Origin: Promethearchaeota archaeon
GTDB taxonomy: Archaea; Asgardarchaeota; Lokiarchaeia; Sigyniarchaeales; SOKP01
Reading direction: 5' to 3'
NCBI GenBank assembly: GCA_008080735.1
Contig: SHMW01000002.1
Span: 67,188 to 131,187 of the forward strand
Length of the DNA stretch: 64,000 nucleotides
Positions 26,853 through 64,000 of the stretch are shown here, piece after piece (the stretch's first letter is position 1; the number at the start of each line of letters is the position of its first letter). The translations under genes were made by a program, and so were the position numbers. The notes below the pieces were generated by a model. It was not told where the DNA came from, ran no database searches, and saw only the letters and a list, made by a program, of their open reading frames with translations.

Positions 26853-26898
26853 TTTGCTATATTTAAATTCTAAATTCTATTATTAAGAGTGCGTATTT

Positions 26899-29325
26899 TT
26901 GACAACGGAAAATATAAAGGACATTCGACTTAAGGAAGAGATGGAAAACAGCTATATCGACTATGCTATGTCGGTTGTGGTTGGAAGGGCAATCCCAGAT
27001 GTGAGAGACGGATTAAAACCTGTACATAGACGTATTATCTGGTCCATGACCGATAATAACCACTTTTACAACCGACCGCACGTAAAGTCTGCCAGAATCG
27101 TCGGGGACACTTTAGGAAAATATCATCCTCACGGCGATGCGGCGGTGTATAATAGTTTAGTACGTATGGCCCAAGACTTTTCAATGCGGTATCCCTTGAT
27201 GGATCCACAAGGAAATTTTGGTTCTATTGACGGAGACCCGCCGGCAGCAATGCGATATACGGAAACACGGTTATCTCGTATCGCAAATGAGATGGTGGAG
27301 GATATTGATCGAGACACGGTTGATTTTCAACCTAACTTTGATAATAGTTTAGAAGAACCCGAATATTTACCATCAAAACTTCCAAATGTATTAATAAATG
27401 GTACAAAAGGAATTGCGGTGGGAATGTCCACTTCAATGGCACCCCATAACCTGATAGAGGTGTGCCAAGGAATTATCTCGACCATTGATAATCCCGATAT
27501 CTCAATCGAAGAACTAATGGAGATTATCAAGGGCCCCGATTTTCCCACAGGAGGGATAATTACTAATACCAACGGTATCTACAATGCGTACTCAACGGGA
27601 ACTGGGCGAATCCCTATTAAAGGGAAAGTTGGATTAGAAGAAAAAGGGAATAAAAGAAGGCTAATCATTACTGAAATTCCTTATCTGCTCAATAAATCCT
27701 CTCTTATCGAACAAATTGCGAATTTAATCAAAGAAGGAATCATTAAGGATGTGTCCGATATGAGAGACGAGTCTGATAGGAAAGGGATGCGTATAGTATT
27801 AGATTTGACCCGTAAAGCCCAGCCAAAAATCATTGAAAATATTCTCTACAAACGTTCTCGCTTGTTTACGAGCTTTAGCATTATCAACTTGGTTTTGATT
27901 AATGGTGGGAAGCAACCTAAGATCCTCACCTTAAAGGAAATGATTCAAGAATATATTAATCATCGATTAGATATCGTGTATCGGAGAAATCAGTATGAAC
28001 TCAAGAAAGCAAAAAAACGACTTCATAAGGTCGAAGGGCTTATCATCGCGTTAAATGACATTGATAACGTTGTGAACATCATAAAAGGTGCTGCCGACAG
28101 AAATGACGCCGAGCAAAAGCTAATGGACAAATACAAGCTCTCGGAGATACAAGTCAAAGCTATTTTAAGTATGCCTCTCTCACGTCTTACAAATTTAGAA
28201 CAGCAAAAATTATTTGATGAAGAAAAAGAACTTAAGGCAAATATCAAAGAATTTGAAAATATTTTAGCAAGCAAGCAGCGAAGACTCGACATTATAAAAG
28301 AAGAACTCGCCGAAATAAGTAAAACGTATGGAGACGAAAGAAGAACACAGATTATCGAGCAAAGAGCAATAAAGGACATCTCTAAAATAGATTTAATTAA
28401 AAAAGAGCCCACCATTGTCATTTTTACGAAAAATCATTACATTAAACGGATTTCTATTAAGGAGTATAGAACACAAAATCGAGGCGGGAGGGGGAAAAAA
28501 GGAATGGAAGTGGATGATGAAGATTTTATTAATGATTTATTTGTGTGTTCCACCCACGATACGATCCTTTTCTTTACCTCAAAAGGGCGCATCTACTCAA
28601 TCAGATGTTTTGAAATTCCCCAACAAACCCGTACCGCAAAAGGAAAACCCGTCGTAAATATCATTAAATTACGAGATGATGAGGAGATCTCAGAGATGAT
28701 CCCGATTAATAACTTTAACACCGATGACAGGCTTATAATGGTTACCCGGAACGGGACGGTTAAAAAGATTAGATTAAAAATGTTTTCAAAGGTTCAGAGT
28801 ACAGGTATTCGGGCACAACGGATTCGGAAGGATGATAAATTAGTGAGCGTGAAAAAGCTTTCTAATGAGCTGCAAGATATTTTTATCGCGACAAAAAAGG
28901 GATATGCGATACGATTTGATGAGTCTGAATTACGGGATTTGGGAAGAAATGCGATTGGTGTCCGAGGAGCTGATCTTCGGGAAGATGATGAAGTTGTGGA
29001 TTCATTGCTTGTAACAGATGATGATATAGTGCTAACGATTACCGAAAAAGGAAATGGCCAACGGACTTATATCAAGGAATATCGGAAGACGGGTCGAGCT
29101 GCGAAAGGTGTGAAAAATATAAGCTTAAGCGAGGACGATCAAGTGATTGCGGTTCGGATTGCTAAGGTAAAAGATCTTATCGTGGGAACGGAGCAAGGTC
29201 AAGTGATCAGAGTACCCGTGGAATCAATTCGGATCACTCACAGGAAGGCGAAAGGAGTTCGAGTCATTAATCTCTATGAAGATGATTCGGTCTCAGCTAT
29301 TGGTAAATGCGCGAAAAAAATTTAG
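26899..29325 (+). CDS. gyrA: DNA gyrase subunit A
   Basis: RAIPDVRDGLKPVHRR, YHPHGD, catalytic AAMRYTE, GyrA-box QNRGGRG, beta-pinwheel CTD repeats. Confidence 0.97.
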   Translation: MTTENIKDIRLKEEMENSYIDYAMSVVVGRAIPDVRDGLKPVHRRIIWSMTDNNHFYNRPHVKSARIVGDTLGKYHPHGDAAVYNSLVRMAQDFSMRYPLMDPQGNFGSIDGDPPAAMRYTETRLSRIANEMVEDIDRDTVDFQPNFDNSLEEPEYLPSKLPNVLINGTKGIAVGMSTSMAPHNLIEVCQGIISTIDNPDISIEELMEIIKGPDFPTGGIITNTNGIYNAYSTGTGRIPIKGKVGLEEKGNKRRLIITEIPYLLNKSSLIEQIANLIKEGIIKDVSDMRDESDRKGMRIVLDLTRKAQPKIIENILYKRSRLFTSFSIINLVLINGGKQPKILTLKEMIQEYINHRLDIVYRRNQYELKKAKKRLHKVEGLIIALNDIDNVVNIIKGAADRNDAEQKLMDKYKLSEIQVKAILSMPLSRLTNLEQQKLFDEEKELKANIKEFENILASKQRRLDIIKEELAEISKTYGDERRTQIIEQRAIKDISKIDLIKKEPTIVIFTKNHYIKRISIKEYRTQNRGGRGKKGMEVDDEDFINDLFVCSTHDTILFFTSKGRIYSIRCFEIPQQTRTAKGKPVVNIIKLRDDEEISEMIPINNFNTDDRLIMVTRNGTVKKIRLKMFSKVQSTGIRAQRIRKDDKLVSVKKLSNELQDIFIATKKGYAIRFDESELRDLGRNAIGVRGADLREDDEVVDSLLVTDDDIVLTITEKGNGQRTYIKEYRKTGRAAKGVKNISLSEDDQVIAVRIAKVKDLIVGTEQGQVIRVPVESIRITHRKAKGVRVINLYEDDSVSAIGKCAKKI

Positions 29326-29995: not shown

Positions 29996-31252
29996 TTGTA
30001 TAACCTCAAGTTTGAGAAAATGTCTCCCCCGAGTGAATTAGTTAAAGCAATTTCGCAAGATGAGCAAATTATCTATTTTTCAGGACAACTAGAAAGTAAG
30101 CAAACTACACACAGTTATGTGAAACTGTCGTTAATTTTAGCTATTTTTCTGTTCATTACGTTCGAAATTACCTTCAATTTAACTTTCATTGACCAATTTG
30201 ATGAATGGTATGAATTGGTTTTTTTACTATTTCCGTTTCTCTTTTTTTTAATACCAATTGTATTGTATTTAAGCAGAGACAAAAATTACAAATATTTTGC
30301 AATAACTGATAATAATATTTATATTTTGGAGTATCAAAAATATCATAATCAATATGTTCCTAATGTGTATAAAATAACATTAAGCAGAATACGCGGATTC
30401 TCATATCTCCCCTATAAGAAGGATAAGGACCTCGGAGGACTTCTACTCATAGAGGAGAACACTGAACGTCCTCCTAGGTATAAATCCGCAAAAAACATTT
30501 ATTCATTACCCAATATACCCCATTTCACCTCATTTCAAATTCTTTTCGAATCTTCTCTCTATGAATATGGGGAGATTGAAGAGAAGTGGAACAATCTAAT
30601 TGCAAAGACCGGGCTGAAGGAGCCGATCGAAATTCATATCTCACAGACACGGTTAGATGAGATTAAATCACGCATTAAACGTTATATTATGTATTTGATT
30701 GTTCTTCCAATAATATGCCTTCTTCCTCTATTCCTAAGATTTTTTCAAATTTCTCTTTTCAGCATCCTTGGGATAGGGTTAGAAATCATCATCTATATCA
30801 TATTAATGATTGTATCTGCATCAATTATAGGAATATATCTGTGGAATAGCTTTTATTATAAGGCAAGAGCCAAACCACAACACACTATATTAAGACTTGA
30901 GAAAAATAACATTTTTGTTGAACTTAATTCAGAGAAGTTAATCGAAAAAACAGATACTACATACATAGCTTATTCATCCTTAAGAGGAGTTTTATCGCTA
31001 TTAAAATCTCAAAATATCTGGGAAGATTGGTACGATAGTATCGTGATTAAACCATCTTCCTCCTCAAAGAACAATTTTTTCTTTGGTCCAATAGAGAATT
31101 TTTCATATAATTTCGAACTTACGCTTTATTATCTACTCCTCTCAAAAGCTCGGGAAGGAAGATTATTCGGAAAAAATAGAATTTTTGAATATAAAGCAGA
31201 GCAAGAAGAAATAATCGATTTTGAAGAGAAGATTCGTTTCCAAAAAAATTAA
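29996..31252 (+). CDS. hypothetical membrane protein with repeated 2TM + bPH-like modules
   Basis: Two pairs of TM helices, each followed by a beta-rich segment (YFAITDNNIYI). Confidence 0.6.
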   Translation: MYNLKFEKMSPPSELVKAISQDEQIIYFSGQLESKQTTHSYVKLSLILAIFLFITFEITFNLTFIDQFDEWYELVFLLFPFLFFLIPIVLYLSRDKNYKYFAITDNNIYILEYQKYHNQYVPNVYKITLSRIRGFSYLPYKKDKDLGGLLLIEENTERPPRYKSAKNIYSLPNIPHFTSFQILFESSLYEYGEIEEKWNNLIAKTGLKEPIEIHISQTRLDEIKSRIKRYIMYLIVLPIICLLPLFLRFFQISLFSILGIGLEIIIYIILMIVSASIIGIYLWNSFYYKARAKPQHTILRLEKNNIFVELNSEKLIEKTDTTYIAYSSLRGVLSLLKSQNIWEDWYDSIVIKPSSSSKNNFFFGPIENFSYNFELTLYYLLLSKAREGRLFGKNRIFEYKAEQEEIIDFEEKIRFQKN

Positions 31253-36757: not shown

Positions 36758-38515
36758 ATGAAGCGAACAATAAAAATCGCACTTATCGTGCTGGTTTGCG
36801 TGTGTGGGGTTATGCCCACGGGGATGATCGCGCCCGTGGCGGCACAGTCCCAAGACTCTGGGCTCGGCTTCGAGTTCAGTAGTGATATCGTGACTAAGAC
36901 CTTTTCCATGTATAAAGAATATAATAATGAAACCTTTTCCTACAAATATAACGGGGTATCATTTCATGAGTTCACTTGGATTTACAACACCTATTGGGGA
37001 GAGGACGGCTATTTTCATGTTATAGAAATAACTGATGAAAGTGAGATAATACAATTTAATCACGAATATAACACCACAGTTTCCGGATATTTTCGAACTG
37101 AGATGACACTCGATATGTATGAAGTCAAGATTACGTTCGGAGATTCTTACGAGATGAGGTTCTATGCCTTAAAGAACGGCTCGTTTTTTACCGAATATTA
37201 TCAAGATTATCGAGGAAATTCAATATATCGCTTTGATATTATTTATACCACTTATACCACAGTAGAGAAGATATATCTCAATGAAAATATGGAAACTCTT
37301 CTCAGCGAAGAGATAATCGACGTTGAAGAAGATGTTGGGTGGGGTGGTACTCCGGATGAGGATATACGTGTTCGTGATGATTTTAGGGTATTTTATTATA
37401 ACCAAACTGCATCGTTTGCGGCTCCGCTGGTAATGATAAACCAAATGTTTATCACACCGAATGGTCAAAAAGTCGCGTGGGGTGAGTTTATGTGGGAGAT
37501 GATTGCCTTTAATGATAATAACAATGATGGGTATTATAGCGCCGATACGAATTTTTACGATGACCCGGAATTTGAGGAAAAAATCTTGCCATACATACTC
37601 GATAGCTATGTCTATTATGATACTCCTGGAGACGAACCCATCAGAGAGATAGATCAATCCTTCCCGAATGATATGAGCGTCGCGGACGCATCATCATTAA
37701 TTAATTTTAAAAAGCCCACCCTTTCGAACGGCACTCTATCTTGGGGAGTTGATTATACACATTTTCCACTTATCGCGAACGGGACATTTGCCCTTATTTT
37801 ACCCGAAATTTCCTATGCAGATTCCTTGAAAGCCGATTATTCCTTCGATTTTGAATTTTTTCTCAATGAAGATGACACACAGTTGGATATCACCTCAGGA
37901 TTTACGCTTACCAACTCATCTCAAACAGAATTTGCAATGCTGATGGATGGTATGAGTTTGTGTGTCCCGCAATATTCTTACTTGCTTTCATCAATGAAGA
38001 TCGACCAACAATTTTCCGATGCGATAACACGAAAACAAGAGGTATTTGAATTCGAAGGGGAAAAAGGAATAGTATGCGAGATAGATATGAGCGGTCTCAA
38101 GGAACCCTACACCCTTTATAATCACTCGGATGAGAACAAGGCACTAATATATGATTGTGTGGGAGCAGGGGTGAGTAAGATCATCACCACCCCTATGCAA
38201 GGGGCAATAACCCCAGCAACTACTGATTATACACATTCATTCGAACACATGACGTTCTTACCCAACCTCGTATTTTCGGTAGGTGATCTGGTACAAGATG
38301 ATCCGCTTCTACGGGAAAGTTCGAACGCCAGTCGACTCCTCTCGATCGAGACAAAAAATTATCCAATCTGGTCGGGCAACTCGTTTTATCACGACCCATC
38401 GCTCAAGGTCGACCTCGCCCCACAGCTCCCCTTGCTTGAGATCGGCATCGTACTCATCTGCGGAGTCATCGGGATAAGCGCGGTAGCCCTGCTCTATCGT
38501 AAATTTAAAAAATAA
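36758..38515 (+). CDS. secreted cell-surface protein with C-terminal TM anchor
   Basis: Signal peptide (..PVAAQ), acidic/aromatic beta-rich body, DNNNDG Ca-type motif, many NxS/T sites, HDP motif, C-terminal TM + RKFKK. Confidence 0.8.
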   Translation: MKRTIKIALIVLVCVCGVMPTGMIAPVAAQSQDSGLGFEFSSDIVTKTFSMYKEYNNETFSYKYNGVSFHEFTWIYNTYWGEDGYFHVIEITDESEIIQFNHEYNTTVSGYFRTEMTLDMYEVKITFGDSYEMRFYALKNGSFFTEYYQDYRGNSIYRFDIIYTTYTTVEKIYLNENMETLLSEEIIDVEEDVGWGGTPDEDIRVRDDFRVFYYNQTASFAAPLVMINQMFITPNGQKVAWGEFMWEMIAFNDNNNDGYYSADTNFYDDPEFEEKILPYILDSYVYYDTPGDEPIREIDQSFPNDMSVADASSLINFKKPTLSNGTLSWGVDYTHFPLIANGTFALILPEISYADSLKADYSFDFEFFLNEDDTQLDITSGFTLTNSSQTEFAMLMDGMSLCVPQYSYLLSSMKIDQQFSDAITRKQEVFEFEGEKGIVCEIDMSGLKEPYTLYNHSDENKALIYDCVGAGVSKIITTPMQGAITPATTDYTHSFEHMTFLPNLVFSVGDLVQDDPLLRESSNASRLLSIETKNYPIWSGNSFYHDPSLKVDLAPQLPLLEIGIVLICGVIGISAVALLYRKFKK

Positions 38516-50284: not shown

Positions 50285-51016
50285 TTATTCTAATTTGTTC
50301 CGTATCCATTTTGGTAATGCCAATCCCAGATAAAGAAAGAGGAATAAAGCCATAATGCAAATCCTAACGGGGATAAGAAGGTATTGATCTGTAATGATAC
50401 TATCTACAATAGCAAATATATAGAGTGAAAACCCAATTATTAAAAATCGTCCACGCCATTTAAGATCCCTTTGGTCTGATTCTAAGGCCCTTCTTCCAAG
50501 ATGAATACCTGTAATTATTACAGCAATGCTAATAAGTATCGCAACAATAAGGATAAATCCCTGATAATAATGATCCAATTCAGTTTGATTTACTACTGGT
50601 AATAATTCTTTGACGGGAGTTCCAGTTGGTAAGAAAAGGGTATATATGATAAGTATATCAGATATTATTATAAAAATCCCCGTAATCACAATAATCTGAT
50701 TTCTTCTTTTTTGATATACTAAATCAAGATAAATATATAACCAACTTAAAAACGCAATAGGATATAGTGTGGAACCAATTAAAATATAAGCAGCATCATT
50801 TAGCACCAATTCTTGAGTAATTAACCAACTTAAATAATCAATTACTCCTGGTAACCAAGGGGTAATAGCAAGACTAAGTGTGATAAATACCAAATATAAG
50901 GTTTTTTCTTTTGTTTGAAATGCGCGAATTAAGGTATGAGAAGCGAGCAAAATAACAAACACGACCGCAATCAACATAATTATCGCGTTTATTTGTACGA
51001 CTGGACTTAAACTCAT
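50285..51016 (-). CDS. standalone 7TM membrane protein (paralog 3)
   Basis: About seven TMs; PWL, KWRGRFL, VRICI..LYLG..P-W. Confidence 0.75.
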   Translation of the reverse strand: MSLSPVVQINAIIMLIAVVFVILLASHTLIRAFQTKEKTLYLVFITLSLAITPWLPGVIDYLSWLITQELVLNDAAYILIGSTLYPIAFLSWLYIYLDLVYQKRRNQIIVITGIFIIISDILIIYTLFLPTGTPVKELLPVVNQTELDHYYQGFILIVAILISIAVIITGIHLGRRALESDQRDLKWRGRFLIIGFSLYIFAIVDSIITDQYLLIPVRICIMALFLFLYLGLALPKWIRNKLE

Positions 51017-52745: not shown

Positions 52746-54941
52746 TTATTCAAAGACTACTTTTTTCGTTAGCGGGTCTAATTTTAGCAAATTTTTATTA
52801 AGAATTAGACGGATTTTCTGAGATGTAATTTTTGGATTATTATATACCAAATCATGTACATAGGAGGTATATTTTTTGCCTTTTTGAGCCAGTTTGTAAT
52901 GATCTTTGTTCTTTTCATCATAGAAAGGGATTGGGAAAGAAAAAGGACGTTTATGGATATGTCGAGAGCTTTTTATTAACTTAATATATTTTGTGATTAA
53001 AGGAGTGTTGAATATGGCTGTAAGATAATACGCTTCATTCTTCTGCTCAGTAGAATAATAATAATTCTCAGAATCTACGATTATTTTTTGTTCAAACTGT
53101 TCAATTACGGCAGATTTTAAATAAGAACCGCTTGCATTATACACTACAAGGTAAGGGGAGGTGTTCGTTTGCTTGGTTAGTTTATTCCAATAATTCAGAT
53201 TAGAAAATAACGTTTCTATATCACTGGTGGATTTTTTTCGCTCTTCATAAATATGATTCATTTTTTTATAAAAATCATACGCAAGAGGATTTGATTTCAA
53301 ATATTCTGTTTTGAATTTGTAATTTTCTTTATCAATAGGCAAAAAGACATCTCTCAACCGTTTTAGGAAGAATGGTACAAGATCTTTATTTAGGAACGTT
53401 TTAAATCGAAAATCTTTTTCTATTTTTTTATTTTTGAATTGGAATCTCCACTTTTTTTTAGATCGAGAGAGAATGTCCTTACTGGAAGATATAGACAATA
53501 TATTATTTTCTTCACTATTTATTTCAAAGAACACGAGATTCCTCGGAACTAAAGTCGCCCCTTGATAAAATCTTTTTTTATATTGACTGTATTGTATATT
53601 TGACAAATATTCTATATCCTTCTTAGGTAATATTACTAAGGCGCCGTCTTTTTCAATTTTTAAAGAAGAATATTCCGTTTCTTTTGTAATGTTTAAATTT
53701 TCATCAAAAATTTTAGCCAAAATGGGATATTTTTGCTGGATATCTTTCGTTTTATTTCCGGTATATTGGGCTTTAAGACAAATATGATCTATATTAAAGC
53801 AAGAATTATTAGAAAAATCCCATATCTCAATATTTTCAAATTTCCAAAATGCTCTGAATTTTTTACAATGATCTCCATTAATTAACGATTTTGTAGCTAC
53901 AAAAAAAATAATTCCGTTTGACTTTGAAAAGATTGTTGGGATTGCATAGAAAAATATCGCCGCAAGTTCAATATGAGTAATATATTGACTTTTGGGTTTG
54001 ATATTTAATTTTTCTGCTAAATTTCGAATTTTTTCTTGATAAGTTTTCTCTTTAAGGTCCTTGTAGGTTAACCAGGGTGGATTTCCTATAATTAGATCGA
54101 AGGAATTCAGTAACTCGTCCTGATTTAGTTTAAGCTTTTTAAATTCATTATTTTGAGGAAATAATGAATCTATATAATGGAAATTTAATTTTAATTTTTT
54201 CATATTGATATTGGGCATATATTCGTCTAAAATTATCAACGCATTGATCTTTAGAGTAAAAATTGCTAAAGGATTAATATCAAATCCAAATATATTCTCT
54301 ATCGCTTGGTATTTCAAACCATCAGATTTATGTGATTCTATTATTCTTGAGATAATTTCCATAATAAAATTACCCGAACCACACGCAGGATCTAATATTT
54401 TCATCCCAAATTCATAGCTATTCTTTACCATCTTTTTAACTAAATTTGAAGGTGTATAAAACTCACCTGTAGAATGCCTAATAGAAGATCGAATAATATC
54501 TTGATAATAATAATGAAATAAATCTTCTTTCTCGATATGAGCCTTGAATAGTAGACGGTAAATTTGATGGAAAGTTTCTTGGTCAATATTTACCCATTCA
54601 AAAGTCTGAAGTATCGGTGAGGAAAGCTTGTCATAATTTTTTGATATATAGGTTTTATATGCTTCTTTCACGTCTGCTCCTTTTTTTATGGAAATGCGAA
54701 CTACTAAAAAAATGAATAATGTCGTACAGTAATAACAGTGCTTAAGAAATAAGTTTTCGTTACATTCAATATTATATATTGACGAAAAAATGGATTTCCA
54801 TTCTTCATATTTCTTATCAAATACCTTAGTATTATTTTCCTTGACTTTCTGGATGAATTGGGATAATTTTTTATAAAAAGCAGAATTTTGCCCAAAAACG
54901 TCGACAATTCTCTTTGGATTTAAGGTTTCTTCAACAGGCAT
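52746..54941 (-). CDS. N6-adenine DNA methyltransferase with target-recognition region (type IIG/Eco57I-like, no obvious nuclease)
   Basis: GEFYTP, DPACGSGNF, FDINP, GNPPW, QGATLVPR. Confidence 0.85.
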   Translation of the reverse strand: MPVEETLNPKRIVDVFGQNSAFYKKLSQFIQKVKENNTKVFDKKYEEWKSIFSSIYNIECNENLFLKHCYYCTTLFIFLVVRISIKKGADVKEAYKTYISKNYDKLSSPILQTFEWVNIDQETFHQIYRLLFKAHIEKEDLFHYYYQDIIRSSIRHSTGEFYTPSNLVKKMVKNSYEFGMKILDPACGSGNFIMEIISRIIESHKSDGLKYQAIENIFGFDINPLAIFTLKINALIILDEYMPNINMKKLKLNFHYIDSLFPQNNEFKKLKLNQDELLNSFDLIIGNPPWLTYKDLKEKTYQEKIRNLAEKLNIKPKSQYITHIELAAIFFYAIPTIFSKSNGIIFFVATKSLINGDHCKKFRAFWKFENIEIWDFSNNSCFNIDHICLKAQYTGNKTKDIQQKYPILAKIFDENLNITKETEYSSLKIEKDGALVILPKKDIEYLSNIQYSQYKKRFYQGATLVPRNLVFFEINSEENNILSISSSKDILSRSKKKWRFQFKNKKIEKDFRFKTFLNKDLVPFFLKRLRDVFLPIDKENYKFKTEYLKSNPLAYDFYKKMNHIYEERKKSTSDIETLFSNLNYWNKLTKQTNTSPYLVVYNASGSYLKSAVIEQFEQKIIVDSENYYYSTEQKNEAYYLTAIFNTPLITKYIKLIKSSRHIHKRPFSFPIPFYDEKNKDHYKLAQKGKKYTSYVHDLVYNNPKITSQKIRLILNKNLLKLDPLTKKVVFE

Positions 54942-54944
54942 CTT

Positions 54945-56279
54945 TTAAAATCCCGGTAATCGTTTGATTCTTGTCCATTCTTTATCAAATATGAAATCGA
55001 GATCAAAATCAAAGAGTTGTTTTTTAATATCGATTACTAATGTGGACCACCCAAAATCCCTCGCTCCCATAGCTTCTCCAGTTTGAGGATGGTAATATTC
55101 AGAAAACCCAGACTTTTCTATTAAATCGAAAGTTCTCTGAGCTAATTGGAGTGCAACATTTTCGAAACCATGTTTTTTCAAACCCTTGATAATGAACCAA
55201 TTAATATTAATCCAGCTGGGACCCCTCCATAATAATCCCGTTTCTTGATCGGAAAAAGTGGGCTCGTCTAATGCAACAGAGGGGATAGGAAAATCAGACC
55301 AAAATTCCTCCTCATTCAGTAAATGATCGAACACTAAGGTTGCAGCAATATTGTTTGGTAGGTTCGTTAAAATTAGGGGAATTAGCGAAAGGGATGTTTT
55401 AACTTTGTTAATTTTATTCTCATTTCCATATGTCCCGAAAAATAAACCCTCTTCTTTATCCCAGAATTCTCGTATCAAGATAGTTTCCATTTCATCAGCT
55501 CTTTTAATGCATGTTTCCGCTTCCCCTTTTTCTTCAAGCTGGTCATATAATTCCGCAAGGAGTCTATAACCTTCGATAAAAGTACAATTAAAAAGGATAT
55601 CTTTAAATAGAAAAAAATTCATTTCAAAAATTTTCTCCATATTCCATTCACAAAGATTCAAAATATTCAATTGTTCTAGTAAAGCTTTCATCCATTGAGA
55701 TGGAAGTTTTTCCTTTGAAGTGTCAATATTGAGTGGTGCATCATAGAGTGGTGAATTATCAATTCCCGATTCCCATACATGAATGATATTTAATAATGAG
55801 ATTGGATCAACCGGATTCCTTCTTGTAGTATACAAGAAATCATAGAAATCTCGTACCGCTCCGATATATGTGCGGATATATTCTATATTCTTTTCCGCTC
55901 TATAAATCGAGCATAATGCATCAGCGAGAATAGGAGTTTGTGTTATAGAACTCTTAGATAAGAATTTGTAATATTTTCTAACTAATTGATCGATCTGAGT
56001 AATATTTCCTTTCCAATAATATATATGTGGCAAAAATCCATTATCCTCTTGAAGCTTCAAAAGGGTCTCAAATTCTTTTTTAGCATATTCAATATTAAGG
56101 TGGCTATTAACTATTATATGAAAACACGAATCCCATAACCATTGATGCTGATACTCTGGAATACTTGGGCATATATAAAAATATTTTATGTTCAGGTTAT
56201 TTTGTGCGATGTCTTCTTGGATATTATTTTCCAATATCGTAGAAGCTTTAACATCAATATCCTTAATATATTCAGACAT
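54945..56279 (-). CDS. GH63-like (alpha/alpha)6 glycosidase (MGH1/amylo-alpha-1,6-glucosidase-like)
   Basis: QWLWDSCFH, TQTP, WESGIDNSP, WRGPSWININ, FSEYY, FGWS. Confidence 0.85.
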   Translation of the reverse strand: MSEYIKDIDVKASTILENNIQEDIAQNNLNIKYFYICPSIPEYQHQWLWDSCFHIIVNSHLNIEYAKKEFETLLKLQEDNGFLPHIYYWKGNITQIDQLVRKYYKFLSKSSITQTPILADALCSIYRAEKNIEYIRTYIGAVRDFYDFLYTTRRNPVDPISLLNIIHVWESGIDNSPLYDAPLNIDTSKEKLPSQWMKALLEQLNILNLCEWNMEKIFEMNFFLFKDILFNCTFIEGYRLLAELYDQLEEKGEAETCIKRADEMETILIREFWDKEEGLFFGTYGNENKINKVKTSLSLIPLILTNLPNNIAATLVFDHLLNEEEFWSDFPIPSVALDEPTFSDQETGLLWRGPSWININWFIIKGLKKHGFENVALQLAQRTFDLIEKSGFSEYYHPQTGEAMGARDFGWSTLVIDIKKQLFDFDLDFIFDKEWTRIKRLPGF

Positions 56280-56441: not shown

Positions 56442-56978
56442 TTATCTCATAAATGAGGGGAGGAATAAGTTATAAAATTCAGAAATCTTATCCAAAATCG
56501 ACTTTTGTCGTATTTTTGTTAAAAGCAGATAAGACTCCTCTAATTCTTTCCTATCCAAAGACCCGCTAGCATAGATTGCCTCTTGATCATTAAACACGAG
56601 GAGAGAGACGACATTTGGATTATTAACAACATTTATTTTTCGTTCATTTTTTATTTCATCATAAAATTCAACATAATCCGTTGGAATATTACCACGTTCA
56701 CTTGTGACTACTCTAATATTTATTTCTTTAACAGCTAAATTTTTAAGTTCATTTGTATAAAATCTATCGATTTTTGAGCTTAAAATACTTAGTTGACCTT
56801 CCGTGTTGGTAAATAGATTCAACAATTCGTCATTAATCCTATTTTTACTATCTGGACCACCTGATATTTCAATTTCCACGTTTCCAACTAACGATAAAAT
56901 CTTGTTCTCTAATTGTTCAACTTCATTTTTTAGCCTTCGGTTTTCAACCCGTAATTCAATTAATCTGTCATCTGACAA
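56442..56978 (-). CDS. coiled-coil + degenerate PLD-like domain protein
   Basis: N-terminal heptads LRVENRRLKNEVEQLENKI; PLD-like pattern (INIRVVTS...NPNVVSLLVFNDQEAIYASGSL) lacking HxK. Confidence 0.6.
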   Translation of the reverse strand: MSDDRLIELRVENRRLKNEVEQLENKILSLVGNVEIEISGGPDSKNRINDELLNLFTNTEGQLSILSSKIDRFYTNELKNLAVKEINIRVVTSERGNIPTDYVEFYDEIKNERKINVVNNPNVVSLLVFNDQEAIYASGSLDRKELEESYLLLTKIRQKSILDKISEFYNLFLPSFMR

Positions 56979-57077
56979 TTTAATTCACTTCTTTTATCAC
57001 TAATTATGATATAAATGTAGTATTTTTGTTGATATTTAATATTATTTCATTTAATTTTGCATTTTGTATTTAAATTA

Positions 57078-59663
57078 TTATTTTGAATCCATTTTGTTCC
57101 AAGGTTCTCCATATAATATGAAACTACTTATCGTTTGGCTGTTTTCGATATTAATATGCTGATCTTCATCACTTTGCTTGGATTTTGAAATTTTTTCTTC
57201 TAAAAATTTTGTGGTCCTGTCTGCGATGCATTTTTGCCGAGATTTTAAAAGTGCCACACCTAAAGATTTATGGTCAAATAAGTTCGAAAAGAAATTAGCG
57301 ATTATCTTTTTCGATTCATCATTAAATATTGCATAATTTCTGCTAATAATCCCAGAAATATTATTGGTCATGAAGTTCGAAATAATTTCACCAAAACTCC
57401 GTAATTCATCTTCAATATGATTTCCCTCGTTATCATAAAGTTGTGTATTAAAGAATATTATTGGTCTAGTTTTGTTGTTTTCTTTCAAAGCTTCAAAAAT
57501 ATCTGAAAATTTTACAATGTTCCTATCATTAGTGAGGAAGTAGGAATTTTGAGGATTTAATTCGGAGTAAAAAATGTTTCCGATAATATATATAATATGG
57601 TGATTATCCGAAGAGATATTTTCTAAAATTTTACTATGTGTACTTTCTCTTCCCGAAAGAATATCCAAGGATTCAATTTCCGTTCGCTGGCTTAGAAATC
57701 GGGTTATAAAATCTAATTCATTCGCTCCAGCTGGAAACGGGAATAATAATTCCTTTCCTTTTAAATCTTCATTCCATTTTTTCGGTCCTAATGTATTTAT
57801 TGAGTCGATTATGAGCGCTTTATATTGACCATTGGTTGATTCTTCTTTCGAACTTGATTCTTGTTCTTTATACGTAAAATCAAATCCTCCTATAGGAGGT
57901 TCTCCAATATTATATCCACTAGAATATTTCAAGAGAAAGAAATTTCCATCGTAGATTAATTCAAATGGAATTGTCATATGATCAAGAATGAAATAGACAT
58001 GTGGGATATAATCAAGACTCCTTACTTTAAATTGAGTAAAGAAATCTCTGATGAGCTTAGGTAATAAGAGAAACAAAACTTTTCCAAAATCTCTCAAATT
58101 AAAGTCATATTCTTTTTGCTTCTCATTTGAGAACATCTCATTGTAAATATCAAGGATGTGCATATCATTCCAGAATTCATTTTCAATGTTTCCTTCAAGA
58201 GTGTCATTTTTTAGTGAAAGGATTCTATATGACATTTCTCCCGAAGATCGAATTCTAATTATTATATTTTTAATATCAAAATCCTTCTCATAAAATGCAT
58301 ATTGCTCTTTCTCATCCAAAAGATATATCTGGTTTTTTAATTCCTTAGTTTCTTCATAAATCTTTTCTAGATCTTCTAAGAGAGGTCGTATACGTTTTCC
58401 TAAGTGGGGAATAATGCTTCTTGCCAATTCTAGATCGTCTTGCTCATACAGAGCACGATAAAAGATCATCCTCCAAAAGTCGCGCTTTTCCAATGAGAAG
58501 AACATAGTTTTAAATTTCCATAAGTAGTTGCAAGTGTAAAAATAATGGAAAATTTGTGAGGGTTTTTGAGGAGTAGTTAAATGATTGGTTAATTTTTCTA
58601 TGGATTGTAAAAGATATTTTTTTTCTTTCATATTAACAAATTTCTTACATGCTTCTGCCCAAAGCTCAATAGATACATTATCGTAGCTTAAATCAGACTT
58701 CAGCATAAATAAATCTTCTAAAAAATTGTAGATCTCAAATGCTATCATAAAATTATTTCGATTAATAGAGTATTCAATAAATTGTCTGGTGAGAACGATT
58801 GCGTCTCCAAAAGATTGGAAATTCTTCGTTATATTGAATAATGCGCGAATGATGATGATAATCCAGAAAGCTTCTCCAATATTGTTTAAATATTGAATTA
58901 ACCAAATAAGATCTTCCTTAATCGAATTAAAAGTCCCTTGGTTAATCTTAATTCTGCTTAGATTACTAAAAGTATCCCGTAAGTAATTAGGAATTCTGTT
59001 CACGAGAATCTTATTCATTGTGTGTATGAATTCTTCTGAATCTTCGAGGAGCTCAAATTTTATGTTAACATTTTCTAAAATCACATACAAAAATAAGGCT
59101 CGTTTTCCAGGTTCTAATTTATATATAATTCTTCCCAAGTATTCCATTGCACTCCTGAAATAATCGGTGGGAATCACAGACTTTCTTAAATACATTAAAA
59201 GGATTTGCAACTCAATGAGCTTTGAATATTCTCGCTGCTCTATCACCTTTATTGAGAATGAGTTGATGAACTGAGTTATTCCATCGATGGATAAATCTTC
59301 CATTTCAATGAAAGTTTGGAGTAATTTAGTCGCGAATTTTTCAAAAAGATTAAAATCTTCCAATTTTGTGAGAAAGGAGAAGAATCTTTTATACGCATCC
59401 ACATATTTGATTAGATCCATCTCTTCCTTATTTTTCTGCTTTAAGGAGTTGACATATATCCAATATGAATTTGATAAGACCAGAATTAATTGATGCTTTT
59501 TTTGAGCATTCAACCATTCCTTAGTTTCAATATCGAAATATAAATCTTGAAGTAATTTCGAAGCCCAGTGATGATTTCCCGATTGAAGTAATCGTCGAGC
59601 CTGTATCACCCGGTCTTGAAATTCGCTAAGGAATTTACGTTTTTTATCTACATTTATACTCAT
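57078..59663 (-). CDS. alpha-helical solenoid protein with C-terminal catalytically inactive CHAT domain
   Basis: IPFELIYDG, AGANE, IIYIIGNI (vs IHFAGHG), IFFNTQ (vs LNAC), SLGVALLKSR, FILYGEP. Confidence 0.75.
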   Translation of the reverse strand: MSINVDKKRKFLSEFQDRVIQARRLLQSGNHHWASKLLQDLYFDIETKEWLNAQKKHQLILVLSNSYWIYVNSLKQKNKEEMDLIKYVDAYKRFFSFLTKLEDFNLFEKFATKLLQTFIEMEDLSIDGITQFINSFSIKVIEQREYSKLIELQILLMYLRKSVIPTDYFRSAMEYLGRIIYKLEPGKRALFLYVILENVNIKFELLEDSEEFIHTMNKILVNRIPNYLRDTFSNLSRIKINQGTFNSIKEDLIWLIQYLNNIGEAFWIIIIIRALFNITKNFQSFGDAIVLTRQFIEYSINRNNFMIAFEIYNFLEDLFMLKSDLSYDNVSIELWAEACKKFVNMKEKKYLLQSIEKLTNHLTTPQKPSQIFHYFYTCNYLWKFKTMFFSLEKRDFWRMIFYRALYEQDDLELARSIIPHLGKRIRPLLEDLEKIYEETKELKNQIYLLDEKEQYAFYEKDFDIKNIIIRIRSSGEMSYRILSLKNDTLEGNIENEFWNDMHILDIYNEMFSNEKQKEYDFNLRDFGKVLFLLLPKLIRDFFTQFKVRSLDYIPHVYFILDHMTIPFELIYDGNFFLLKYSSGYNIGEPPIGGFDFTYKEQESSSKEESTNGQYKALIIDSINTLGPKKWNEDLKGKELLFPFPAGANELDFITRFLSQRTEIESLDILSGRESTHSKILENISSDNHHIIYIIGNIFYSELNPQNSYFLTNDRNIVKFSDIFEALKENNKTRPIIFFNTQLYDNEGNHIEDELRSFGEIISNFMTNNISGIISRNYAIFNDESKKIIANFFSNLFDHKSLGVALLKSRQKCIADRTTKFLEEKISKSKQSDEDQHINIENSQTISSFILYGEPWNKMDSK

Positions 59664-59665
59664 CT

Positions 59666-60838
59666 TTAATCACACTCCCCTTGCTCTATTGATCCTTCTT
59701 CTAATCGGGGGTTCTTAATCCACCCTTCCAATTTATCACGACCAAACAAAACACTACCGCCGATCCATGCCATATTTTCCCTCCCTGAAGCTGCAAAAAC
59801 TTTTATCTGGTCTTTTAATTTATCAGAAAAATGCTTTCTAAGTTCAAATTGTAGTCTGTCTTTGAGTCCAGGTATAAGACTCCCCCCTCCCGAGAGGATA
59901 ACATTCGATAGTAGGTCTGCCCAATTTTCTCTGTCCCAAAAACGGACGATTTTTGCGATTACTTCTGGAAGAGACATATAATCAATATGCACAAGTTTGG
60001 GATCAAAAAGAGGTTCACTTATCATAAATCTCTCATAATTTATTTTTAATTTGGAATTATCGGGCAATTTCACTACCCTATTATATTTTGTCAGCCCCTC
60101 TTTGATCCTTTCTTTCTCTTTTTTCGGGTTTTGTACGCATATCGACATTTTTTCTTTTATCTCTTTTGCAAGCCAATAATCCAGATAAAAATTTCTGCTG
60201 GAGGCCCTTCCTTTCAAGATCATATTAAGAAAATAATTTGTAAGTTCTTCACCCGCAATCGGAAAAACATCTCTCGCCATAATGTTAGTAAAGCCATGAT
60301 AAATGGAGGAGATATAGGTATTATTTTCGCCCATATTAATAATAACACCATCTGATTTTCTCAAAGTTGAGAGTATTGCTTTATCATCGGGAAGGAAAAG
60401 TAAAAATGGAAACTCGAATTTTTCAAAAAAAATATTTTTTAATTTGGCCTTAATTATATCCGTCAAATTAAACGGGCTTATAATAATGATTGGTTGCATG
60501 AATCTGTATTCATCAGGTATGTTCAACTTCTCATAGTGAAAAAGGAAATATTTTTCGAGAATATTATAATTTTCTTCCTTGATAAATTCATGAATTTTTA
60601 AAATATTTTGATATTTTAAGGCATTATCCCCGAACAAATACTCCTGTCGGTTATCGCCGATAAAAATCTCTTCTAATCCGTTTACTACATCTGAATCAAA
60701 GATATAATCGGACGCATCAACATAAATGCTTGGAGTAAGTATCTCGGGAAAATCTCCGCCTGCCCATCCAAATCTAAACGTTGAAGAACCAAAATCAGCT
60801 ATTAATGGTCTTAAATATGTTTGTTCTGCAGACGACAT
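59666..60838 (-). CDS. Asgard actin-related protein (divergent actin/ARP)
   Basis: DFGSSTFRFGWAGGDFP, IFFEKF, INMGE, IAGEELT, EIKEK, LPD, ERF-EPLFDP, ILSGGGSLIPGLKDRL, AWIGGSVL. Confidence 0.92.
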   Translation of the reverse strand: MSSAEQTYLRPLIADFGSSTFRFGWAGGDFPEILTPSIYVDASDYIFDSDVVNGLEEIFIGDNRQEYLFGDNALKYQNILKIHEFIKEENYNILEKYFLFHYEKLNIPDEYRFMQPIIIISPFNLTDIIKAKLKNIFFEKFEFPFLLFLPDDKAILSTLRKSDGVIINMGENNTYISSIYHGFTNIMARDVFPIAGEELTNYFLNMILKGRASSRNFYLDYWLAKEIKEKMSICVQNPKKEKERIKEGLTKYNRVVKLPDNSKLKINYERFMISEPLFDPKLVHIDYMSLPEVIAKIVRFWDRENWADLLSNVILSGGGSLIPGLKDRLQFELRKHFSDKLKDQIKVFAASGRENMAWIGGSVLFGRDKLEGWIKNPRLEEGSIEQGECD

Positions 60839-60897
60839 TTTTCTTAAGAGTAAAATGTAAAATGTAGAATAATTATATAGTTAAAATGATAGTAAGA

Positions 60898-61557
60898 TTA
60901 ATGAAATATTTCATCGGTCATCCGCTTAAGTTGATATTCCTTCACTTGGAGTTCTAATAATCCTAATACTTTTCTGAATTCTCTAGACATTCCTTGAATA
61001 TCAACTTCAGCAATTTTCTCAATCTCATCTCTTTTTAGCTTGAATTGGTCTAAATTCTTACGAATTTTTTCATAGGCTTTATTGATTTCTTGTGTTAGAG
61101 CTTCTGTGTTTTTTTTGGTTATTTTACGCATTTTTCGCAGTAATGATAATAGCGCAGAAATAGAATTTTCCCATTGATTATAACGCTCTTGATTTCCATT
61201 GAATAATTTCTCGAAGAATTCCCCTAGTTTCTCATAGACATCTTCTCCTTTATACTTGCTTTTTCCCTCTTTAACAAAACTGGGGGTTTCTTTTACGGAA
61301 GAAGGGGGTTTTGGAGGCTTTACTTCTAATTCTTGTTCACTAGATTCCTCTTCTTTCTCTTCTTTTTTCACGTATGATAATTGAGGTTCAATCACCTCAT
61401 CTTTTTCAACTTTTTTTTCCTTTTTTTTGTAAAACCCTTTCCCCGATTGTAAAGCACTGATAAAATTCTGCAAATCATTTTCCGTTTTTTTTGTAGATTT
61501 TAACGCGCTGTCTAGTGAATCTTCCTTTTCCTTTCTATCACTTTTCTTTTTTGCCAT
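60898..61557 (-). CDS. hypothetical protein: K/E-rich disordered N-terminus, PPKPP motif, C-terminal coiled coil
   Basis: Amino-acid composition and heptad pattern; directly upstream of the ARP gene. Confidence 0.75.
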   Translation of the reverse strand: MAKKKSDRKEKEDSLDSALKSTKKTENDLQNFISALQSGKGFYKKKEKKVEKDEVIEPQLSYVKKEEKEEESSEQELEVKPPKPPSSVKETPSFVKEGKSKYKGEDVYEKLGEFFEKLFNGNQERYNQWENSISALLSLLRKMRKITKKNTEALTQEINKAYEKIRKNLDQFKLKRDEIEKIAEVDIQGMSREFRKVLGLLELQVKEYQLKRMTDEIFH

Positions 61558-61725
61558 GAGACTTCGTTAACTCATTTTATCTTATTATCATAATAAAGAT
61601 TTATCTTATAAATATAATTGTAGCTTCTCCTTTTAAATTTAGAGTATGCTTCCTATATTCATATTTTCTATGAAATTACGAAATAGATAAAAATGTGAAG
61701 AATAGAAATATTGGGGGGCTACATC

Positions 61726-62181
61726 TTATAATGGAACAACTTCAACCTTAAGAGCATCGCCCTCATCTTTTAGTTTTTGTTCAAGCTTATCTAAAGATAT
61801 ATCCGGGGTTGGGCTGATTACTGTCCACATGGCTTTCTTTTCCTTTTCTATGATAACTGATTCCCCGTACATTAATGATATCCCTAAACTTCCAAAAGTG
61901 CTGGCGATTTTAGCTAATGAGCCAGGTGCATCTTCCATAGTAATTCTTAATTTAATTGGCTTTCTCTCTTCATCTAATCCCACGGGAGTAATTTTGATTT
62001 CCTTGGTCTCACTATCTGCCGTCATCATAACTTGAGAATTAGTGGTAAGTCCCAAGCTTTCACGTATGATTTGAGGGATAACAACTCGACCGCGATCATC
62101 TAATGATACTATTTTCACTTCTTTCATACTATGGGTAAATAATGGGAATTCAATTATTAACATTAAATGAACAAAACACAT
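61726..62181 (-). CDS. AbrB/MazE DNA-binding + ACT-domain regulator
   Basis: LDDRGRVVIPQIIRESLGL (AbrB) and MEDAPGSLAKIA..GISL (ACT); likely start MKEVKIV near 62127. Confidence 0.85.
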   Translation of the reverse strand: MCFVHLMLIIEFPLFTHSMKEVKIVSLDDRGRVVIPQIIRESLGLTTNSQVMMTADSETKEIKITPVGLDEERKPIKLRITMEDAPGSLAKIASTFGSLGISLMYGESVIIEKEKKAMWTVISPTPDISLDKLEQKLKDEGDALKVEVVPL

Positions 62182-62348
62182 ATAAATCTATACGCTTAAA
62201 AGGTCTGATTATAATATATTTCCATCAGAGTTTATTGAGATTTGATACGATTTTTGAAGATATGGAAATTTTTCAATGGATAACTAAATCAGAGAAAAAA
62301 AATTCGATTGAGGAATAGTATAATAATAGAAAAAGAATAAAGTGGAAG

Positions 62349-64000
62349 TTAATGTTTGGTTGCTTTTAATTTCACTGAGAGGTCTCGAGCCCGTTTAGAA
62401 TACCATACCAATAATTCACCGGCATCATCAGGCTTGAAATATTCTCCTCCGCATAGTTGGGCGGCCCTATTCATCAATTCATCATCGGGATTTCCAAGTC
62501 CAACTATATAAATTACAACATTTGGATTTTCGGCAAATTGCTGGATAGCTTTAAAGAATGCATCTCCATCAGTAGGGACTCCATCTGTAAGCAGAACAAT
62601 CATGGTGGGCTGGTCTGGGTTCATTTGATTGAATTCATCCAGAACGGTCTTTGCTTTAATCATCGCACTCCCCATATTGGTTGCTTGGCCGTACGCATTG
62701 CCGATCCTATCAACTATCATTCGAGCAGCATCCTCTAAAACACCTTTTTTACCGCTCGCAGAGTCCATATAGAAACTCCCTCCAAATGGAAGAATTTGGG
62801 ACTCATCGGCGAATCGTATTACTGATACTTTCTCTCCGAATCCTCTCCCAACTTTTTCACTGAGAAATAGGACAGCAGCAAATGCAGCGGAGATTCTACG
62901 TGGAATATTAACACCTTCTTTAAATTTTTTAAGAAATTCTTGGATTTCTCGACTTTCCATGGCTGCTTTAATTCCTTCAATCGCGGGGGCGATATTCGTT
63001 ACCAATACATCTCTTGCCATCATCGAACGACTGATATCAAGAATGAGTATAGCATTGAACGGAATTAATCCTTGGGGCGAGAGAGTTAATGCGCTATTTG
63101 GTGTGATTTCAGCAAGCACATCGCCAGTCAAGTCTGGCACACAGCTGAGGATTGAACATGCGATATTTACGGCTTTCCATCGTAATTTGATTCCCTTAAA
63201 GATGATGTATTTAGAAAGCCATTCTTTAAGCTGTCCAATATTTTGTCTCGCGGTGCTTACAATTTCCCACATATTTTCTCCAGAGATGGGAGAAATTCCT
63301 AATGACACACTCTGGAGGGGAATAATCTGTCGACGATTTTTTGATACTTCCACTTCAAAACTACCTATTCCCGAAGCTTCCAATATCTCGCTATCAATTA
63401 CCACCACATTATCCGAAATGGTTTCAGAAATATCTACTTTACCGGCGCCCATCGCGCCTGTTAATTCATCTTCAAACGCTATAACATCATCCTTTTGAAG
63501 GGATAGACTGTGCTGCGTCCTCGGACTAACCAAACAATATCCTTCTAACCCTGGACGAGAATCTACCTCTAAAATAAGACTCTCTGTTTTTTGAATCGGA
63601 GGTTCTGTCGAGAAGAGTACGATTTGATCGGATTGGATATTTGTATCTTCTTTCGTATCTTGGCTAATTCGAATCTGATTATCATTTATCTGTGCTTGGT
63701 CTATACGGGCAGAACCATTTGACCTAGTAAGGGGATCTTCCCATGCAATGAGCATGCCTTGGCCAAGTCCGAGTTTTTGTAAGTTATTAGGACTTAATTG
63801 AATACGACCCCCTTCTATTTTGGAAGATACAACGGGTTGGACAATAATTCCGTTTTTCTGTTCTGCGAGTATATTAGGGTCAATTCGGTTTGGATAAGGT
63901 TCTGGCTCGACCTCTTGCATTACAGGTTCTTGTCCCATAGAGGATTGTGTTGAATATGAATTCGGAGCGGGAGGTGCTCCTTGTGATGGGGATTTTGGAG
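62349..64000 (-). CDS. Cdc48-N-like (tandem double-psi barrel) + vWA protein, 5' end beyond the window
   Basis: Frame stays open past 63938 to the edge (PKSPSQGAPPAPN); two DPBB-like repeats (LSP..LGL..G..WEDPLT / VSP..LSL..D..FEDELT); MIDAS DISRSM, AT, LLTDG. Confidence 0.8.
   Translation of the reverse strand, partial: PKSPSQGAPPAPNSYSTQSSMGQEPVMQEVEPEPYPNRIDPNILAEQKNGIIVQPVVSSKIEGGRIQLSPNNLQKLGLGQGMLIAWEDPLTRSNGSARIDQAQINDNQIRISQDTKEDTNIQSDQIVLFSTEPPIQKTESLILEVDSRPGLEGYCLVSPRTQHSLSLQKDDVIAFEDELTGAMGAGKVDISETISDNVVVIDSEILEASGIGSFEVEVSKNRRQIIPLQSVSLGISPISGENMWEIVSTARQNIGQLKEWLSKYIIFKGIKLRWKAVNIACSILSCVPDLTGDVLAEITPNSALTLSPQGLIPFNAILILDISRSMMARDVLVTNIAPAIEGIKAAMESREIQEFLKKFKEGVNIPRRISAAFAAVLFLSEKVGRGFGEKVSVIRFADESQILPFGGSFYMDSASGKKGVLEDAARMIVDRIGNAYGQATNMGSAMIKAKTVLDEFNQMNPDQPTMIVLLTDGVPTDGDAFFKAIQQFAENPNVVIYIVGLGNPDDELMNRAAQLCGGEYFKPDDAGELLVWYSKRARDLSVKLKATKH

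Follow-up and report, generated by a model that had tools for sequence, protein, structure and literature searches.

Monomeric eukaryotic actin-related proteins (ARPs) serve in large complexes, such as the pointed end of dynactin (Arp11-p62) and the nuclear modules of Arp4, Arp5, Arp6 and Arp8. In archaea, the crenactin-arcadin cluster of Thermoproteales places an actin gene beside genes for its binding partners, and crenactin is a filament former. The locus described here carries a divergent ARP gene directly before a gene for a solenoid protein that ends in a CHAT (caspase-like) domain. As in the eukaryotic complexes, the ARP would serve as a structural subunit whose polymerisation face is covered by a dedicated partner, as judged by structure prediction. 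However, the partner here is a solenoid of the caspase clan that is dead as a protease and has no relation to p62 or to HSA proteins, and only one archaeal order has the ARP clade. By analogy, the pair may work as ARP modules do in eukaryotic complexes, though it is a member of none of them. Unlike crenactin, the actin relative at this locus is predicted to be capped, and Pfam scans revealed no homology to arcadins.

The CHAT protein has the same architecture as Csx29 (Craspase), DdvA and separase, in that a helical solenoid is followed by a pseudo-protease-like subdomain and a caspase fold. It differs from TPR-CHAT proteases in having Asn and Gln in place of the His-Cys dyad, which DdvA retains. 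Also, no CRISPR or sigma-factor genes were seen beside the cassette, and Cas7-11, Csx30 and Csx31, which belong with Csx29 to type III-E CRISPR systems, are not conserved neighbours in the 41 neighbourhoods that were mapped. Another protein of the cassette shares its fold with Nuc/NucT, Zucchini, the DUF1669 domain of FAM83 and the C-terminal domain of TrmB (Z 13-19). Unlike these single-domain phospholipase D (PLD)-fold proteins, it has neither an HxK motif nor a helix-turn-helix (HTH), and instead carries a short coiled helix at its N terminus and a near-invariant C-terminal tail.

The ARP of Lokiarchaeum ossiferum (UYP47647.1) was placed among ARPs in an earlier study (PMC9834061), where its transcript was found by RT-qPCR to be below that of Lokiactin, and the RT-qPCR primers given there map inside this gene. 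The available part of that paper gives no partner, gene context or function for UYP47647.1, and describes neither the cassette nor the interface reported below. Literature searches with accessions and with combinations of Asgard, CHAT and actin, covering papers outside subscription journals, returned no description of the cluster or of the partner protein, and no partner or role for any of several Asgard ARPs. The ARP gene is therefore already known, whereas the cluster and the partner protein appear to be undescribed.

Gene content of the locus

We analysed a stretch of 64,000 nucleotides (the window) that runs up to the end of contig C2. Its last part carries six ORFs, all on the minus strand (Table 1), as an earlier note on this DNA had described. 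The spacings proposed in that note are also correct: 59 bp separate the stop of the coiled-coil (CC) gene from the start of the ARP gene, and 2 bp separate the ARP stop from the CHAT start. Downstream, four more genes share this orientation (54945-56279 to 50285-51016), and a system cannot be delimited by co-orientation alone. A single MK-D1 RNA run covers the corresponding locus, but it is available only as contigs with even coverage of the entire region, and it is therefore uninformative on co-transcription. Promoter scans gave hits at chance level with a sigma-70 model, which is unsuited to archaea.

Table 1. Features of the cassette and its upstream neighbours, in window coordinates
Feature	Position	Strand	Basis and remarks
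Cdc48N-like barrels and vWA domain	62349..63998	-	Intact MIDAS; 5' end cut by contig end; not part of the system
AbrB-ACT protein (PRK08577-like)	61726..62181	-	Common upstream neighbour; missing at the loci of MK-D1 and L. ossiferum; outside the core
CC protein, 219 aa, module 2	60898..61557	-	Alignment; retained where ARP and CHAT are absent
Divergent ARP, 390 aa, module 1	59666..60838	-	Pfam Actin 1.5e-46; tree; primer mapping; site counts
ARP residues 42-61, D-loop replacement	60656..60715	-	Family-specific insert, ~10 extra residues; alignment to Lokiactin; interface list
Solenoid-pseudo-CHAT protein, 861 aa, module 1	57078..59663	-	Model pLDDT 84, pTM 0.75; fold matches
CHAT residues 17-139, first helices	59247..59615	-	Predicted cover over ARP subdomains 2 and 4 (pointed end)
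N696, catalytic His position	57576..57578	-	Asn in 95/96; register against one intact CHAT domain
Q741, catalytic Cys position	57441..57443	-	Gln in 90/96, Cys in none
PLD-like protein, 178 aa, module 2	56442..56978	-	Model pLDDT 88.5; fold matches; motif counts

Several neighbouring genes have features of their own. An N6-adenine methyltransferase gene of Eco57I/MmeI type (window 52746-54941) lies behind the cassette in most loci of family f1, and is unusually stable for a restriction-modification gene. A gene for a one-domain gelsolin with an additional region X (L032:4183-5034; C88:453-1343 in the source genome; L106:8479-9429) matches the Loki 2DGel protein with an E-value of 8e-12; it is found upstream of the roadblock and vWA genes in f1, and directly downstream of the PLD-like gene in genome G039. 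In most loci of family f2, the PLD-like gene is followed by a gene for a membrane-like protein of ~405 amino acids that has no Pfam match (L103:8047-9261 and orthologues), and this gene is present with or without ARP and CHAT. Elsewhere in the window, gyrB and gyrA adjoin at 24831-29325, and two large ORFs have no Pfam match (29996-31252, 418 aa, and 36758-38515, 585 aa).

A conserved four-gene core

Across 41 mapped neighbourhoods, the genes for CC, ARP, CHAT and PLD-like proteins occur in this order in three families of one Lokiarchaeia order. In MK-D1 they are DSAG12_01478-81, with the protein accessions QEE15651.1-QEE15654.1, and in L. ossiferum UYP47645-48. ARP is directly before CHAT in 103 of 104 loci, once artefacts of start calls and frameshifts are set aside; CC and ARP are adjacent in 100/102 loci, and CHAT and PLD in 98/99. 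Many of these ~100 loci were picked for carrying both ARP and CHAT, and the genomes are related, so the counts describe conservation and do not amount to a statistical test.

The earlier note proposed a system that included a vWA protein, and suggested synteny of ARP, CHAT, PLD and vWA as a check. The first three of these, together with CC, are indeed conserved across the order, but the vWA gene is a neighbour of the cassette only in f1, and its distance from the cassette is ~320 kb in MK-D1 and ~310 kb in L. ossiferum. It was not found in genomes G116 (92% complete) or G141 (96% complete), which both have an intact cassette, and it is present in G039, which has no ARP or CHAT. The vWA protein is therefore rejected as a member of the system. 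The gene that the earlier note counted without naming is real, but encodes an ordinary AbrB-ACT protein. With vWA unlinked outside f1 and no AbrB-ACT gene at the loci of MK-D1 and L. ossiferum, a six-gene system does not hold.

The domains ascribed to the vWA protein are present, although the ORF lacks ~170 N-terminal residues because the window ends with contig C2. The missing residues include the first Cdc48N-like barrel and most of a Pro-rich linker. Contig C88 begins with NnrDE, a gelsolin-domain gene and a roadblock gene, which are the genes that precede vWA in relatives. The MIDAS residues (DxSxS, T, D) are all present, and are invariant in 15/15 sequences. A full-length version of this Cdc48N-like/Pro-rich/vWA gene is available at L032:5694-7847; the protein shows ~65% identity across the order, with long invariant stretches, and may merit a study of its own.

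Profile searches of 250-300 sampled genomes of the phylum detected no full-length CHAT protein outside the order, and only weak matches to the PLD-like protein. When 1.8 billion representatives were searched, the most distant full-length CHAT homologues were still located behind an ARP of the same clade, with a spacing of 0 to -4 bp. At one such locus (L182) neither CC nor PLD is beside the ARP-CHAT pair, and at another the order is ARP, CHAT, CC. No fusion of ARP and CHAT was seen among the 120 listed matches of 457-1530 aa, and the CHAT protein alone as a query for related loci yielded nothing. Inter-protein mutual information in 86 paired sequences (effective number 40) was at the level of noise for all six pairs.

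The actin-related protein

The window ARP is the orthologue of L. ossiferum UYP47647.1 and MK-D1 QEE15652.1. It belongs to the actin/ARP family (Pfam Actin 159 bits, with a cut-off of 27), and has 26% identity to the Lokiactin of its own genome. Placement in an actin-family phylogeny had been named beforehand as a check, and in a tree that included Lokiactin and no eukaryotic ARPs these proteins form their own clade, separate from the slow-evolving Lokiactin clade (21 rows, SH-aLRT 100).

Equivalents of actin D11, G13, G156, K213 and G301 are kept in 88-96 of 96 ARP homologues, and the family also keeps equivalents of K18 (mostly as Arg) and E214; the nucleotide pocket is partly kept. Other positions expected of a filament-forming actin ATPase have changed: the H161 equivalent is His in 0/96, Gly is found at the G15 and G158 equivalents in 0/96 each, and D154 is kept in 6/96. 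The earlier note listed Q137 and H161 as lost. The loss of H161 is family-wide, but at the Q137 equivalent the window ARP has Lys whereas 80/96 homologues have Gln; a family-wide loss of Q137 is thus ruled out, and this change is particular to the lineage of the window.

The actin C-terminal helix is absent from the ARP. In place of the D-loop there is an insert that is longer than the D-loop and is conserved within the family. The barbed face, with surfaces defined as in F-actin, has a conservation of 0.81 within the family and an identity to Lokiactin of 0.26, the same as the whole protein.

Two ARP genes of one genus have unusual starts, whereas that of MK-D1 begins with an ordinary start codon. 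In L. ossiferum (L108:9700-10791) there is no ATG, GTG or TTG at the expected start, where ATA or ATC follows a purine-rich site. In G078, of the same genus (L110:1-920), the ATG is not in frame and is closely followed by an A6 run. A weak start, a frameshift, gene erosion in the genus, or assembly error may account for this.

The solenoid-pseudo-CHAT protein

The structural model of the CHAT protein consists of a solenoid (residues 5-444), a pseudo-protease-like subdomain (464-590) and a caspase/CHAT fold (612-861). Its best fold matches are Csx29 (Z 18.1), separase (15.4) and DdvA (13.1), and no solved structure of a sequence relative was found. The order of a solenoid and then a caspase-like fold is as in TPR-CHAT proteins and separase, but the His-Cys dyad is lacking. 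At the dyad sites, neither His nor Cys occurs in any of the 96 homologues, whereas the nearest CHAT relatives outside the family mostly keep both residues. The proposal that the dyad is dead thus stands, and on these substitutions we regard the CHAT protein as catalytically dead. Separase orthology was considered and rejected, since the likeness is one of fold only and the nearest sequence kin are other CHAT domains. An LRR-Roc/Ras-CHAT fusion protein (L185:531-3899) is among the closest of these outside relatives.

The coiled-coil and PLD-like proteins

The CC protein has a basic N terminus, a variable low-complexity linker and a conserved helical C-terminal domain of ~115 aa, for which no usable family or Atlas match was found. 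Its description as Pro-rich was overstated, as it has 6 Pro in 219 residues and the family median is 4%. UniRef names the L. ossiferum CC protein a "FlaD/E domain" protein, but the Pfam families given for 25 members do not bear this name out.

The PLD-like protein is modelled as an N-terminal 28-residue helix (residues 3-30) followed by a single domain with the PLD fold, which matches NucT (Z 19.2), Nuc (Z 17.8), FAM83 and the C-terminal domains of TrmB and TrmBL2. Neither HxK(x4)D nor GSxN is conserved: the His site is Val in 83/86 homologues, the Lys site is Tyr or Phe in 80/86, and GSxN reads GSLD. The suggestion of a dead PLD is therefore supported. Unlike TrmB, the protein has no winged HTH, and its N terminus is a single helix. 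The C-terminal tail LP(S/T)FMR (window 56442-56459) is near-invariant, and is likely a docking motif.

A predicted interface between ARP and the solenoid

Residues 5-380 of the ARP and 1-598 of the CHAT protein, the part that precedes the caspase domain (599-861), were submitted to complex prediction, both with alignments of 96 rows. The pair scored 0.73 and the best control 0.01. For comparison, 58 of 80 solved complexes attain the score mark, as do 2 of 110 mismatched pairs, although these figures are rough for alignments of the kind used here. At least 94% of contacts were shared between the three runs, and the partner pLDDT was 86 or higher. Binding of ARP to the CHAT protein is thus supported by prediction, and the confident interface that the earlier note had asked for is in hand at this level.

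The first solenoid helices are predicted to contact ARP residues 42-61, 76-80, 218 and 259-261, which lie in subdomains 2 and 4, and the insert at 42-61 would be the main docking site. Predicted interface residues are barely above background conservation (p 0.08 and 0.10).

Two modules in place of one complex

In five genomes of two genera the CC gene is followed directly by the PLD-like gene, at a distance of 12-117 bp. These genomes are G055 (a single-contig genome), G018 and G019 of genus g14, and G039 and G063 of genus g15. Profile searches found neither an ARP orthologue nor a CHAT protein in any of the five. In a tree of CC and PLD-like proteins g14 nests among genera that have the ARP, and a single clade of g14 and g15 is rejected (p-AU 0.007). 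Since the two genera do not form one clade, at least two separate losses of ARP and CHAT are the simplest reading. Neighbouring genes can vanish in one deletion, so the joint loss of ARP and CHAT is supportive and not proof of a functional link.

Genus g4 offers a further observation. Here ARP and CHAT are seemingly deleted or broken in G027 (L176:7170-7787) and G044 (L177/L178), and are intact but more diverged in three other genomes. G027 has a 3.3-kb deletion that removes ARP and codons 1-653 of CHAT (three quarters of the gene), although a misassembly is possible in this metagenome-assembled genome. Ongoing decay of the ARP-CHAT pair in g4 is possible.

Abundances in L. ossiferum also bear on this split. 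A proteome with Prokka identifiers is available (bioRxiv 10.1101/2025.11.30.690169, Suppl. Table 2), and we mapped its GNAMCCOK identifiers onto genes by inference from the paper's ID table, one mass, an intervening tRNA-Val and one abundant protein. The mass of GNAMCCOK_03977 (20.38 kDa) matches that of the GTPase UYP47658 (20.39), and the very abundant 03971 becomes the histone UYP47653 under this mapping. The PLD-like protein would then be 03963, with a log2 value of 19.3, and CC 03966, with 17.9, where Lokiactin has 21.7 in the same table, whose unit is unstated. The rows listed, which extend down to log2 14.4, contain neither CHAT (03964) nor ARP (03965). CC and PLD-like proteins thus seem to be far more abundant than ARP and CHAT, although the low level of ARP may be specific to this lineage, in which the gene has no canonical start codon.

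The earlier note interpreted the locus as one multi-subunit complex of all its gene products. This reading is disfavoured by the unlinked vWA gene, by the persistence of CC and PLD-like genes without ARP and CHAT in five genomes and two lineages, and by the apparently far greater abundance of CC and PLD-like proteins in L. ossiferum. Two modules, ARP with CHAT (module 1) and CC with the PLD-like protein (module 2), fit the evidence better than one complex.

Possible functions of the ARP-CHAT pair

We lean, by somewhat more than an even chance, toward a low-copy, non-polymerising scaffold of ARP and pseudoprotease that is an optional add-on beside the CC/PLD-like pair. Module 1 would be a dedicated pair of ARP and pseudo-CHAT. 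The ARP probably still binds nucleotide, hydrolyses it poorly and forms no filaments. The first solenoid helices are predicted to clamp the remodelled D-loop and subdomain 4, which would seal the pointed end of the ARP. The dead caspase domain and the conserved, non-actin-like barbed face would stay free as docking surfaces, and the pair, present in few copies, might be a scaffold or adaptor to which a client binds and is not cut. CC and the PLD-like protein, as an abundant module that presumably works without module 1, would be the first candidate client.

An alternative that we consider unlikely is that the pair is a cap or nucleation seed for Lokiactin, convergent to dynactin Arp11 or to Arp2/3. 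Here the solenoid of a dead separase-like protease would seal the pointed end of the ARP, the free barbed face would bind the pointed end of a Lokiactin filament, and recruitment would be via CC and the PLD-like protein. The predicted geometry does leave the barbed face free, low abundance is consistent with one cap per filament, and a gelsolin-domain gene is in the same f1 block and directly behind the PLD-like gene in G039. However, the barbed face is no nearer to Lokiactin than the protein average, the equivalents of V287 and R290 (actin numbering) are Arg and Trp, the C-terminal helix is missing, and there are Lokiactin-bearing lineages without the ARP-CHAT pair. Also, none of the four core proteins is among the Lokiactin co-immunoprecipitation rows listed (10.1101/2025.11.30.690169), from the most enriched down to a ratio of -1.06 and including all enriched rows, though the low abundance of ARP and CHAT weakens this point. 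The partners named in the available text of that paper are gelsolins, a profilin and an ARF GTPase.

A complex of all four core proteins, which is the earlier idea without vWA and AbrB, is somewhat less probable again. The gene order that is kept in three families, with its near-constant adjacencies of CC to ARP and of CHAT to PLD, is suggestive of such a complex. Against it, CC and PLD-like genes stand alone in two lineages, the ARP-CHAT pair stands alone at L182, and the apparent abundances in the L. ossiferum rows listed differ more than 10-fold.

Distinctly improbable is a role of the pair on DNA or chromatin, as nuclear ARPs have, in which the PLD-like protein would be an effector domain of the TrmB type. 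Neighbouring genes include a Hef/XPF helicase, a histone, an N6 methyltransferase and a DEAD helicase, and the PLD fold matches the C-terminal domains of TrmB and TrmBL2, but the DNA-related neighbours vary by family and remain where the pair is absent, the PLD-like protein has no HTH, and no DNA-binding domain was seen in module 1. Least probable of all is that gene order is merely inherited among non-interacting proteins, to which vWA and AbrB would be linked as much or as little as the rest: f1 does have a long block in which even unrelated genes (NnrDE, roadblock, methyltransferase) stay in order, and local coevolution gave no signal, but the ARP-CHAT order outlasts rearrangements that part every other neighbour, and the complex prediction passed its controls.

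Implications

Since the cassette was found only in a single order, the scaffold of ARP and pseudoprotease is likely an invention of this lineage and not the direct ancestor of a eukaryotic complex. The locus nevertheless bears on whether ARPs were non-filament subunits of dedicated complexes outside eukaryotes. It gives an Asgard ARP a concrete predicted partner and binding surface, with the genes present in two cultured Lokiarchaeia, and natural lineages without the ARP-CHAT pair permit comparison. If the proposal is true, a dead separase-like protease would have been reused as a clamp on an actin fold.
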